64,000 nt of DNA from positions 32,001 through 96,000 of IMG/VR virus record IMGVR_UViG_3300021399_000113; one strand, 5' to 3'. This stretch comes from a virus (Duplodnaviria > Caudoviricetes). The notes beneath the pieces were generated by a model. The model did no database searches. It was given only the letters and a program-made list of their open reading frames with translations, and was not told the origin of the DNA. Numbering within the stretch: position 1 is the stretch's first letter; every line of letters begins with the position of its first letter. Made by a program: the position numbers and the translations under genes. Below, one piece after another: positions 4,951 through 8,751 of this stretch.

Positions 4951-7053
4951 ATGGAATCATTAGCAGTAAAATACAGACCTCAGACTTTGGAAGAGATTGT
5001 CAGCCAAGAGAGTGTTACAAAAATTCTTGCACGACAAGTATCTGAGGGTAAAATAAAGAATTGCTATTTATTTACAGGTGCGTCTGGTTGTGGAAAAACT
5101 ACAACTGCACGTGCATTAGCAAGGTTGATTAATGGCAATTCTAATGGGGTGATTGAGGTAGATGGTGCTTCAAACAATGGGGTAGACAATATTCGTGCCC
5201 TTATCACTTCCGCTTCAGAACGTGCTATTGGGGCAGAATATAAGATTATAATCATGGATGAGTGCTTTACCGAGAACACTAACATCATCACCTCTGTAGG
5301 CAATAAGGCGATTAAGGATGTGCAAGTGGGCGATTTAGTCCTTACATTAGATGGATTTAAAAAGGTTGTTAAGACTTTTAATAAAGAAATTGATAGTAAC
5401 CGTCTTGTGTCCGTTAAACTTAATAATTCAAAAAAGGTTGATGTTACAGACAACCATTTGTTTTTAACAGTGAATGGTTGGGTAAAAGCAAAAGACTTGA
5501 GAGAGGGCGATGTTTTAATTGACAATCAAAGTGTGTCCCGTTTGTGGCAAGGAATATCAGACACGGAACACAACTTGTTCGATGGAATGTGGACGAATAC
5601 TTCAGTGGCAACAGAGGCACAAAAAGTATTCTCCCAAAAAGTACACGCATACTTGTGTAATTTGTGGAAAGATGTGGGAAACAACACACAGAAGAACACC
5701 GCAGACCTGTTCAATGGAATGCTATTCGACACTGCTTACAAAAAGGCAGAAGGAGCAATATGCCTCCGAACTTGGGATGGAACGCAAGAAATTAGCATCA
5801 GAAAATGCGAAGAAGTGTCTGATACAGACACCCGAAATGAGGCTAAAGAGTTCAATCCGAATGAAGCTGTACAATCCAATGGCAAACAGTACATCAATAC
5901 AAAAGATGCTACAGACGAAGAATACTCATGGAACACTTCATTGTTGGACAGGACAGCGTGGGGGGAATGGACATTATACACACCAACAGTTGATTTTGAA
6001 AGAGAATTTGGGGAGTGCTTGGGAGTTGGAATATCCAATAGCAACGGGGATAACAAGGGCAAACAACCTAAACAAATATCCTACTTGTTACAAGTTAGAC
6101 CTTGCTTGTCCCGAAAAAATGATTGGGATAGAGGTGGATGGCAAAACTCACTTGCGGAAAGAACAACAATACAGAGACTTGAAGAAGACAAACTTTTTGG
6201 AACAGTTAGGGTGGAAAGTGTTGAGGTTTACCAACGCACAGATAGACACAGAATTGAAGAGGGTATTAGAAACAGTACAAGGGTATATGATTTAGCGGTA
6301 GAAGATTGCCCAACATATTTTGCAAACGGGGTGTGTGTACATAATTGCCATATGATAACAGTGCAAGGTTGGAATGCCTTTCTCAAAACGTTGGAAGAGC
6401 CTCCGAAATACACTATCTTTATGTTCTGCACTACAAACCCAGAGAAGATACCGATTACAGTTCTTAACCGATTACAGAGGTTTAATCTTCAGCGTATTCC
6501 AGCAAACAAGATAGAAGAGAGGTTAAATTTTATTTGTAAACAAGAATTGTTTACAAATTATAAAGAGGCTTGCGCTTACATCTCAAAGATTAGTAATGGA
6601 CAGATGAGAGACGCTATTACTGCCCTTGATAAGTGTGCAAGTTATGACACTGATTTGTCTATTGATAAGGTACTGTTTGCTTTGGGAAACTTCTCCTATG
6701 ATATGTTCTTTGATTTACTCAACGCTATCATAGATGATAATGAGGGGGCAGTACTACAGATTATCAACAGTATTTACTATGATGGTAAGGATTTAAATCA
6801 GTTTATAATCAGTTTCACAGCTTTTATTCTTGATGTAACCAAGTATCTTATTTTTGGAAACTTTGATGTTCTTCAGATACCTACATCATACCAGAATGCG
6901 TTGGACAATGTAATTAAGATAGAAAACGTGCAGTTATATTATAATTATCTAATTGATATGTTGTACAAGCTGAGAGAGGCAGTTAAGTTTGACACTGACA
7001 TTAAATCCACTTCGGAAATTTTATTCTTAAAGATGGCAAGGAACATCGAATGA
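4951..7053 (+). CDS. dnaX: DNA polymerase III gamma/tau clamp-loader subunit, intein-containing
   Basis: LAVKYRPQT, GASGCGKTT, DGASNNGVDNIR, Walker B DE|CH split by intein, NAFLKTLEEPP, GQMRDA. Confidence 0.93.
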   Translation: MESLAVKYRPQTLEEIVSQESVTKILARQVSEGKIKNCYLFTGASGCGKTTTARALARLINGNSNGVIEVDGASNNGVDNIRALITSASERAIGAEYKIIIMDECFTENTNIITSVGNKAIKDVQVGDLVLTLDGFKKVVKTFNKEIDSNRLVSVKLNNSKKVDVTDNHLFLTVNGWVKAKDLREGDVLIDNQSVSRLWQGISDTEHNLFDGMWTNTSVATEAQKVFSQKVHAYLCNLWKDVGNNTQKNTADLFNGMLFDTAYKKAEGAICLRTWDGTQEISIRKCEEVSDTDTRNEAKEFNPNEAVQSNGKQYINTKDATDEEYSWNTSLLDRTAWGEWTLYTPTVDFEREFGECLGVGISNSNGDNKGKQPKQISYLLQVRPCLSRKNDWDRGGWQNSLAERTTIQRLEEDKLFGTVRVESVEVYQRTDRHRIEEGIRNSTRVYDLAVEDCPTYFANGVCVHNCHMITVQGWNAFLKTLEEPPKYTIFMFCTTNPEKIPITVLNRLQRFNLQRIPANKIEERLNFICKQELFTNYKEACAYISKISNGQMRDAITALDKCASYDTDLSIDKVLFALGNFSYDMFFDLLNAIIDDNEGAVLQIINSIYYDGKDLNQFIISFTAFILDVTKYLIFGNFDVLQIPTSYQNALDNVIKIENVQLYYNYLIDMLYKLREAVKFDTDIKSTSEILFLKMARNIE
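5263..6345 (+). mobile_element. intein (361 aa) in the DnaX Walker B motif
   Basis: Block A CFTENT after ...IMDE; block B VTDNHLFL; block F VYDLAVE..TYFANG; ends VHN before +1 Cys. Confidence 0.93.
5519..6295 (+). CDS. zinc-finger + DUF559/Vsr-like endonuclease nested in the +1 frame of the intein
   Basis: Two CxxC...CSMEC repeats; YKLDLA...IGIEVDGKTH...D..K..FLEQLGWKVLRFTN; TTG start with GAGAGGG upstream. Confidence 0.85.
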   Translation: MTIKVCPVCGKEYQTRNTTCSMECGRILQWQQRHKKYSPKKYTHTCVICGKMWETTHRRTPQTCSMECYSTLLTKRQKEQYASELGMERKKLASENAKKCLIQTPEMRLKSSIRMKLYNPMANSTSIQKMLQTKNTHGTLHCWTGQRGGNGHYTHQQLILKENLGSAWELEYPIATGITRANNLNKYPTCYKLDLACPEKMIGIEVDGKTHLRKEQQYRDLKKTNFLEQLGWKVLRFTNAQIDTELKRVLETVQGYMI

Positions 7054-7841
7054 TTAAGTTTCAAGATGATATTATCAACAAAATAGATACTACTGAGTTA
7101 AAAGATTTCCCCCACACATTGCTTTTGTTGGGGGATAGAGGCTGTGGAAAACACACTGTGTCCAACTATGTCTCTGAGACTAAAGGATTGCCTCTGTTTG
7201 ATATTACAGAAAGCCTTGACCTTGATACTCTTAATGGGATATACACAAATACGACATCCGCTATTTATCTGATAAATGCAGACAGCATTACAATAAAAGA
7301 GCAGAATGTTATATTGAAGTTCTTGGAAGAGCCATCAGACCTTATTTACATCATTCTATTATGTTCAAATAAGGCTATGCTGTTACCGACAATAACAAAT
7401 AGATGTGCAGTATGGGAGTTCCATAAACATACAAAAGAGGAACTTAAAGAATTTACTAATGATGAAAATGTGCTGGCTCTTTGTACAACAGTGGGACAGA
7501 TATTGGATTGTCAGACATTTGACTTAGTAGAAATGCAAGCCTATTGCACTAAGATATTTGAATGTATAAATCGTGCCAGCGTTCCCAATATTCTCTACGC
7601 TCTCCCCAAACATATAGCGTGGAAGGGTGAAAAAGATTTATACCCTATTGACATATTGTTCAAAATATTATATAATACAGTGTGCGATATGGTAATTAGT
7701 GGATATAATTGTTTTGATATGTGGGAACTTACACATAAATTCATTAATGATTTAAATATCCCAAACATTGACAAGAAACAGCGATATGAGAAATATTTGA
7801 TAGATTTACAGAATTGGTATAAGTATAAGGATGAGCATTGA
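7050..7841 (+). CDS. holB: DNA pol III delta-prime-like clamp-loader subunit
   Basis: HTLLLLGDRGCGK, QNVILKFLEEP, LLPTITNRC; coupled to dnaX. Confidence 0.8.
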   Translation: MIKFQDDIINKIDTTELKDFPHTLLLLGDRGCGKHTVSNYVSETKGLPLFDITESLDLDTLNGIYTNTTSAIYLINADSITIKEQNVILKFLEEPSDLIYIILLCSNKAMLLPTITNRCAVWEFHKHTKEELKEFTNDENVLALCTTVGQILDCQTFDLVEMQAYCTKIFECINRASVPNILYALPKHIAWKGEKDLYPIDILFKILYNTVCDMVISGYNCFDMWELTHKFINDLNIPNIDKKQRYEKYLIDLQNWYKYKDEH

Positions 7842-8751
7842 GGAATTAAAGCAGACAATTGAAAAGGGGAGCTGTCCATATCATGCTTTGATATTTGATT
7901 GTTCAAAGAGTGGGACGTTTATTGCAGAGCAATACATCAAGCAGATTGCTTTATTATTAAATAAAGACGTTGTTGGAATAGATGACCTTTCAGTTGTAGA
8001 ATCTGTCAACGACATGTTTTATGTGTCAGATAATAACGTACATGTGTATCATACAGATAACCTTGAAAAGTTGGACTATACAGATGCAGAGTTGTCGGAT
8101 TACTTTGTCTACATCATCGCAGATAAGGTGGATAAGACTATCAAAGAGCATTCAATCTATGTAGCACTTCCAGAATTAGAAGAGTGGTGTTTAAAGGATT
8201 TATTGTTCTCTTGCTGTGAGGGGGCAGATGAAGATGACCTTGAAAAACTTTTTAATCTGGTAAAAGCTAATCCTTTTAGAGTACAGCAAGAGATAGATAG
8301 GTTGTCCCTATTTCCTTCAGTTGAGCGTAAATACACGCTTAAAAGTTTTCTGTCCGATGGAATATATGATGATTTAAACACAGACACCACATTTGAGTTG
8401 GTCAATGCAATCTTACATAAAGACCGAAAAAAGATTGTGGTGATGCTTAAAAATCTTGATAAGATGGATATAAATGGATTTGGTTTGGCAAGTTTATTGT
8501 ACACACAATTTCGAAATGTAATTCTGGTGCAGTTATCCAAGACAAAAACAACAGAAGTTACTGGGTTACCATCAAATCAGATATACGCAATAAATAAATA
8601 TTCCACTGGGTACTACTCAAAAGACCAATTATTAAGTATATTTAAGCTGTTAACAGATGTACCTACATTGGTTAAGATGGGTAAACTTCCAGCGGAAGAT
8701 ATGATAAATTATATAATTATAAAAATAATGTTAATCGGAGGAATGACATAA
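7831..8751 (+). CDS. DNA pol III delta-like subunit (HolA-like)
   Basis: Position after dnaX/holB; QEIDRL, FELVNAIL, LYTQFRN..LV, D...K.G pattern of delta C-terminus. Confidence 0.65.
   Translation: MSIEELKQTIEKGSCPYHALIFDCSKSGTFIAEQYIKQIALLLNKDVVGIDDLSVVESVNDMFYVSDNNVHVYHTDNLEKLDYTDAELSDYFVYIIADKVDKTIKEHSIYVALPELEEWCLKDLLFSCCEGADEDDLEKLFNLVKANPFRVQQEIDRLSLFPSVERKYTLKSFLSDGIYDDLNTDTTFELVNAILHKDRKKIVVMLKNLDKMDINGFGLASLLYTQFRNVILVQLSKTKTTEVTGLPSNQIYAINKYSTGYYSKDQLLSIFKLLTDVPTLVKMGKLPAEDMINYIIIKIMLIGGMT

Follow-up and report, generated by a model that had tools for sequence, protein, structure and literature searches.

The 64,000-nt stretch of phage DNA analyzed here (the window; positions 32,001-96,000 of the 138.6-kb IMG/VR record IMGVR_UViG_3300021399_000113, with all coordinates given in window numbering) contains a gene for a DnaX-like clamp loader that is interrupted in its Walker B motif. 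The insert is very probably a mobile, contiguous class-1 intein whose homing endonuclease is encoded by a separate gene, located in the +1 frame in the middle of the intein. The element is one member of a large phage intein family, and gene annotation seldom picks up the nested gene in this family. We propose that it works as follows. The clamp-loader mRNA would be translated in frame 0 into a precursor, from which two Hint half-domains, connected by a long disordered linker, would splice themselves out to leave ...MDE-CHM.... A minority of ribosomes would initiate at an internal Shine-Dalgarno (SD)-like site and a TTG codon at 5519, generating a free nuclease of 258 amino acids (aa). This nuclease would cut intein-less alleles at or near the sequence GAYGAR|TGYCAY, and repair of the cut allele would copy the whole element in. 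The translation of the +1 open reading frame (ORF), the splicing and the cleavage site are what we infer from the data presented below.

The clamp-loader gene, including the intein, is an ORF of 700 aa located at positions 4951-7053 of the + strand, on which all features of the element lie. It matches DNA_pol3_delta2 (1.9e-20), phrog_5846 (9.6e-73) and, in Pfam, Intein_splicing (1.6e-13), and according to the ORF listing frame 0 is open throughout. By comparison with intein-less homologues (...IIDECHMIT...), the N-extein (4951-5262) ends with the Walker B residues ...IIIMDE and the C-extein (6346-7053) starts with CHMITVQGW, which places the insertion point inside the Walker B motif (...IIIMDE|CHMITVQGW...). 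The corresponding halves of the target site are GATGAG (5257-5262), at the end of the N-extein, and TGCCAT (6346-6351), at the start of the C-extein. The 361-aa intein between them (5263-6345) is contiguous and complete, as had been stated in a preliminary description of this DNA: all class-1 splicing residues were found, namely Cys1, TDNH with His65, VYDLAVED, VHN and a Cys at position +1, and both Cys1 and His65 are invariant in 59 family sequences. In the AlphaFold2 model of the intein the N and C halves of the Hint fold are well formed, with a predicted local distance difference test score (pLDDT) of ~97 for the N-terminal splicing domain (residues 1-95, containing blocks A and B; 5263-5547) and for the last ~20 residues. 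The intein boundaries are confirmed, and the distribution of the element is seen to be sporadic, because the eight nearest clamp-loader homologues in IMG/VR (L088-L095; 339-355 aa, 47-53% identity) lack the insert. Seven of these eight proteins contain ...IIDECH... and one contains ...VDEVHCL... (DEVH); their sequence at the junction is ...IFIIDECHMITTQGWNAF, exemplified by ...IIDECHMITTQGWNAF in L088, and the L088-type intein-less site reads ...ATTGATGAATGTCATATG.... The predicted spliced protein, ...IIIMDE-CHMITVQGWNAF, matches the arrangement of these homologues. Judged by its sequence, the insert is a class-1 intein that is predicted to be active in splicing, and splicing is predicted to occur in cis because frame 0 is open across the whole nuclease gene.

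The nuclease gene (5519-6295) starts with TTG and ends with a TAG codon (6293-6295) that falls within the block F codons encoding VYDLAVED. As the preliminary description claimed, its start lies just past block B and is preceded by an SD-like site, and its product is a zinc-ribbon nuclease of the DUF559/Vsr type. The +1 ORF matches DUF559 (PF04480) at 7.8e-13, its 48.7 bits exceeding the curated Pfam cut-off of 20.6, and also a treble-clef zinc model. In frame 0, the same Pfam hidden Markov model search, run on both frames, returned Hint-type models only and no nuclease model, which agrees with the earlier statement that no nuclease is recognisable there. The protein has two zinc ribbons (C6/C9/C20/C24 and C46/C49/C64/C68; 5534-5722), the second of which is invariant in the family, followed by a catalytic core (residues 191-254; 6089-6280). 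The residues that are invariant in 59 family members are all kept in the window: C46, C49, C64, N119, P120, G149 and G151, as well as D194, E205, D207, G208, H211, D220, K223 and W232, six of which (D194, E205, D207, H211, D220 and K223) are the conserved acidic, His and Lys residues of catalysis. A profile made from the 59 members matches a DUF559 protein of known structure (PDB 3hrl) at 1.5e-13 and the catalytic domain of the homing endonuclease I-Bth0305I (3r3p) at 8e-5. The AlphaFold2 model of the nuclease, built from the family alignment, has a pLDDT of 90 and consists of the two zinc ribbons, a helical region and an alpha/beta core; a Foldseek search with this model placed 3r3p, 3hrl, Vsr (1vsr) and TnsA on top, with weak matches (E 0.01-0.1, target template modelling scores 0.45-0.67). 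Taken together, these sequence matches identify the nested ORF as a DUF559/Vsr-type protein, which would be expected to cleave DNA. Family members differ in how many zinc ribbons they have: the GC-rich relative L005 (3995-5293) encodes a 432-aa nuclease with four or five repeats, likewise in +1, inside a 518-aa intein.

Two reading frames on the same DNA

The preliminary description noted that both frames stay open over the length of the nuclease gene, and this openness goes beyond chance. When the nuclease protein and its codon usage were kept fixed and the synonymous codons were shuffled 5000 times, 11.1 ± 2.3 stops were expected in the host frame (frame 0) of the window and none was seen; 0 of the 5000 shuffles gave 0 stops. 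In the reciprocal shuffle 7.0 ± 1.7 stops were expected, again with 0 seen. Over 73 non-redundant nested loci ~896 host-frame stops were expected and 0 were observed. Thus, the host frame is held open by selection.

A check of dN/dS per frame, which had been suggested in the preliminary description, was carried out on relatives. The same DNA of the gapless pair L028/L054 gave an omega (dN/dS) of 0.155 when read in the nuclease frame and of 0.75 when read in the host frame, and the gapless pair L045/L047 gave 0.124 and 1.06, respectively; 47 of 81 substitutions in the first pair and 67 of 116 in the second occurred at the third position of nuclease codons. The extein flanks of L045/L047 could not be used for dN/dS, since the ungapped register is lost there. 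Hence, in close pairs of relatives the sequence comparison indicates purifying selection on the nuclease frame and drift of the host frame over the same DNA, most of frame 0 being subject to nothing but stop avoidance. Because no close relative of the window element turned up, this evidence on selection per frame comes by homology, from other family members. Across the family, sequences share a median of 33% identity with the window when read in the nuclease frame, and 19% when the same DNA is read in frame 0.

The intein frame had been described as a stop-free spacer. This holds for residues 142-311 (5686-6195), a stop-free linker that is predicted to be disordered, with a pLDDT below 50 in the model of the 361-aa intein. 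It does not hold for the last ~90 nt of the overlap (6205-6295), which code for structured strands of the intein C-terminus as well as for a conserved strand (LGWKVLRF, residues 230-237) and the C-terminal helices of the nuclease. Here the intein strand VRVESVEV (residues 315-322; 6205-6228) shares bases with LGWKVLRF, and the stretch also holds the start of VYDL, the nuclease continuing into block F. According to the structural models, this 3' part of the overlap is constrained in both frames, encoding structured parts of both proteins; the conclusion follows from the shared strand DNA, from the frame-0 majority consensus RVESVE in the family, and from the late nuclease stops, which in several relatives lie only 2-3 codons before the last Asn of the intein.

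Recurrence, host genes and mobility

A blastn search of GenBank phages with the whole gene gave no match, and relatives were found at the protein level only. With tblastn, 40 matches were obtained in GenBank phages, all of them beneath annotated helicase or P-loop genes. Four of these records were analyzed, those of Vibrio phages CP-T1 and 1.088.O, Pseudomonas phage MR14 and Corynebacterium phage phi673; in them the match lies in +1 of a long open coding sequence with an intein at ...DE|CF...HN|CH..., and the DNA beneath it carries no annotation other than helicase or P-loop protein. The same nested layout was found in two public-assembly contigs, and the nuclease is in +1 of the covering ORF in each of the loci L001-L006. 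A scan of IMG/VR gave 351 relatives. Among the best 80 of these, whose layout was analyzed, the nuclease is nested in +1 within an ORF of 560-2500 aa that covers it in 77, and in one more that is cut by the contig end; none of the 80 is in +2 or in frame, and their GC content ranges from 0.28 to 0.65. In total, 84 of 87 related loci show +1 nesting within a contiguous intein, which sits at the DE|CH site of a clamp loader or of an SF2/SNF2 helicase. In nearly all loci the nuclease starts 84-120 aa past Cys1 and ends 2-22 codons before the end of the intein.

No version with an in-frame endonuclease exists in the 87 loci. A search of longer proteins for in-frame fusions returned one weak match (P0008, E 1e-4, 610 aa), which makes it weak evidence of absence. 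A canonical bifunctional intein was ruled out on these grounds, along with the lack of a frame-0 nuclease model and the disorder of the linker. A search of proteins of similar length gave only 7 matches, since the nested ORF is seldom predicted as a gene. The three exceptions among the 87 loci are free-standing nuclease genes, two of which are directly upstream of helicase genes. Free-standing homologues in intergenic positions were seen at L071 (1513-2151), L072 (3297-3929) and L055 (3300-3944); in L071 and L072 the 3' end of the gene overlaps the start of a helicase-like gene. It is possible that such free-standing homologues are ancestors or collaborators of the intein-nested form.

According to a Pfam search of the C-exteins of 63 loci, 27 of the hosts are clamp loaders, at least 23 have Helicase_C and 12 have an SNF2 domain. 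Nearly all junctions have the form ...DE|C(F)...(H/S)N|CH..., and the flanking DNA core GAYGAR|TGYCAY is common to both host classes; alignments A2-A4 and the site logo were made without the ten loci whose junction calls were doubtful or had failed (L053, L057, L078, L015, L033, L046, L062, L063, L067 and L081). In a quick IQ-TREE tree the nucleases group by host class, with the window among the clamp-loader elements and with 2-4 changes of host, a number that is approximate; host labels assigned by regular expression are wrong for at least L052. Switches between the Walker B sites of unrelated ATPases therefore appear from the tree to have happened, though rarely. The sequences suggest that a single lineage of nucleases tracks the conserved stretch GAYGAR|TGYCAY, which codes for Walker B, from one ATPase gene to another, unrelated one. 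In the pair L028/L054 the dS of the intein (0.28-0.39) is far below that of the surrounding exteins (1.5-1.8), which indicates that the intein is younger than its host gene there and was transferred horizontally.

Two further observations concern the insertion sites and hosts. In L056, L077, L057 and L078 the intein is inserted two or three codons downstream of DE|CH, past the full DExH box, with junctions ...DEAH|CF..., ...DEIHY|CF... and ...DEIHK|CF...; the insertion point appears to have shifted within the same motif. Furthermore, in L060/L070 and L077 the module of intein and nuclease resides in ORFs of >2400 aa that extend past both locus ends and contain DExH motifs.

Expression signals of the nuclease gene and alternative explanations

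In 72 of the 73 non-redundant loci a start codon (55 ATG, 11 GTG and 6 TTG) is present a few codons upstream of the first CxxC, and in 51 of those 72 it is accompanied by an SD sequence of at least 4 nt, often AAAGGAGAT. Most relatives have ATG and an AGGAG-type SD shortly before the first zinc finger, and the TTG of the window is the homologous codon. The SD-like site of the window (5500-5508) is the purine-rich sequence AGAGAGGGC, at the place where relatives have AAAGGAGAT; in the latter, the sequence doubles as frame-0 code for the intein motif K/R-x-G-D (K-G-D). Based on these signals, translation of the nuclease in the window is plausible, though probably weak. As no promoter-like site exceeds chance, the simplest assumption is that the nuclease is translated from the clamp-loader mRNA; one promoter-like site near the nuclease start ends downstream of the start codon, and we do not claim a separate promoter.

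At positions 5510-5521 the window reads ATG TTT TAA TTG in the nuclease frame, forming a mini-ORF of two codons that stops right at the TTG start. Relatives such as L012 have ATG TTC TGT ATG at those positions, without a stop. The mini-ORF could be a device for attenuation or for termination-reinitiation.

Several observations speak against the interpretation that the window carries an active intein with a functional nested endonuclease. Firstly, the start codon is TTG with the weaker SD GAGGG, where relatives have ATG and AAGGAG, and a TAA lies directly upstream of it in the nuclease frame, so that the window copy of the nuclease may be poorly translated. Secondly, the scan for promoters and terminators gave 11 against 8.1 ± 2.7 by chance, with no promoter-like site above chance. 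Thirdly, Foldseek matched the nuclease model to 3r3p, 3hrl and Vsr weakly, and no close relative of the window element was found, the best nuclease identity being 43%.

The layout could be real and the nuclease gene of the window nevertheless a silent or decaying passenger, with the intein persisting by splicing alone. The TTG start, the weak SD and the upstream TAA, set against the ATG and AAGGAG of relatives, fit this explanation, as does the presence of only one copy of the nuclease in the whole 138.6-kb record; moreover, no close relative came to light from which selection on the window copy itself could be gauged. On the other hand, the ORF of 258 codons is intact and keeps every zinc and catalytic residue that is invariant in the family, its predicted fold has a high pLDDT, and TTG is usable as a bacterial start codon. 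We therefore consider a passenger gene unlikely. Still less probable is the production of the nuclease by +1 ribosomal frameshifting, as a fusion of N-extein, N-intein and nuclease. The fact that the nuclease lies within a translated ORF and is always in +1, never in +2, would agree with frameshifting, but in the window a TAA of the +1 frame directly precedes the TTG, which argues against it, as the shift would be needed at or after 5519. The start codons placed before the first zinc finger in 72 of 73 loci, most of them with an SD, and the existence of free-standing homologues likewise argue against a fusion. Finally, an assembly or sequencing artefact, in which two compensating indels displaced an originally in-frame nuclease domain, found no supporting point and can be practically discarded, since the out-of-frame reading of a real gene would hold ~11 stops where 0 are seen, the same +1 layout is present in 84 of 87 independent loci, including the cultured phages CP-T1, MR14 and phi673, and no in-frame version was found among these loci.

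Coming back to the intein with a functional nested endonuclease, it is tempting to speculate, though we hold it to be rather doubtful, that the overlap is an entrenchment device and not just a relic of the arrival of the nuclease gene. The nuclease would then be shielded from the usual decay in the homing cycle, because an indel or a large deletion would also break the frame of an essential replication gene, and because intein and nuclease each have a structured part encoded in the last ~90 nt. If true, entrenchment would explain why the nuclease is intact and always in +1 in 84 of 87 loci, in clamp loaders and helicases alike, and why neither in-frame nor mini-intein derivatives were encountered among the nuclease-bearing loci.

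Known systems, significance and gene context

The general design, in which the endonuclease of an intein is encoded out of frame or antisense, is known from earlier publications on other enzymes. Gosselin, Arsenault and Gogarten (bioRxiv 10.1101/2025.01.02.630785) reported actinobacteriophage inteins with an antisense LAGLIDADG, an antisense VSR-like or a 'frame 3' endonuclease VII-like enzyme, in genes for DNA polymerase, minor capsid protein, terminase and thymidylate synthase, and proposed that a free-standing endonuclease gene invades the intein. As in our case, those inteins are contiguous, and the endonuclease has an ORF of its own that overlaps the DNA between the splicing blocks. In our family, however, the endonuclease is a DUF559/Vsr-type protein with zinc ribbons encoded on the sense strand in +1, and the hosts are clamp loaders and SF2/SNF2 helicases, with insertion at Walker B. 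Phillips, DeSimone and Gogarten (bioRxiv 10.64898/2026.09.14.751524) described a cyanobacterial dnaX intein with a LAGLIDADG endonuclease in a '+2 ORF' in bacterial genomes; an out-of-frame endonuclease of the dnaX intein was first proposed by Gorbalenya (1998), as credited in that preprint. The cyanobacterial intein resembles the one described here in its host gene family, its disordered frame-0 linker, the frame-dependent selection, the SD motifs ahead of the nested ORF and the sporadic distribution with intein-less alleles. It differs in being LAGLIDADG, +2 and bacterial, whereas ours is DUF559/Vsr-type, +1 and located in phage genes.

Three other systems are related in part. In the fractured genes described by Dassa et al. 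(2009; PMC2677866) a free-standing Vsr-like endonuclease gene lies between the halves of a split intein, and the hosts are, as here, phage genes of DNA metabolism. There, the host gene is split into two ORFs whose products are trans-spliced, whereas here frame 0 is open across the nuclease gene. A fractured gene, with two ORFs created by a stop and a new start, was accordingly ruled out for the window, frame 0 being open over 4951-7053. Among homing endonucleases that have been characterised by experiment, the one closest to ours by profile (8e-5) is I-Bth0305I (EDxHD family, PDB 3R3P; Taylor et al. 2011, PMC3239194), whose gene lies in a group I intron of phage recA; it is also the top Foldseek match and has a Vsr-like core derived from PD-(D/E)xK. 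In contrast to it, our nuclease is encoded by an intein, has another N-terminal DNA-binding region, and shares only ~13% identity in the core. In the ShiLan element (Arsenault et al. 2025, PMC11855218) a hidden HNH endonuclease is encoded out of frame in a phage methylase gene. There too the endonuclease ORF is nested while the host frame stays open, but the element is without splicing domains, its nuclease is of the HNH type, and the insert is thought to stay in the host protein as a loop. A sense-strand +1 intein nuclease of the DUF559/Vsr type is not among the types described in the papers of Gosselin, Phillips, Dassa and Arsenault and their colleagues, and a literature search on inteins with DUF559 found nothing relevant.

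These results have several implications. Nested endonuclease genes are missed by gene callers and intein catalogues, with the consequence that such inteins are filed as large ones with an unknown linker. An overlap of ~0.8 kb on the same strand can persist over deep divergence, as the nucleases are ~30-40% identical and the GC content spans 0.28-0.65. The family forms a link from fractured genes and endonuclease genes that stand alone to contiguous inteins, and it offers a natural system in which to test how overlapping coding constrains a selfish element. It is also a possible source of new site-specific nucleases.

Downstream of the clamp-loader gene, and with overlapping stop and start codons, is a delta'-like gene (7050-7841; DNA_pol3_delta2, 2e-15), which is followed by a delta-like gene (7831-8751; DNA_pol3_delta_C, 6e-7). 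With three clamp-loader-type genes in a row (4951-8751), the phage is predicted from these matches to encode a multi-subunit clamp loader of the bacterial type.

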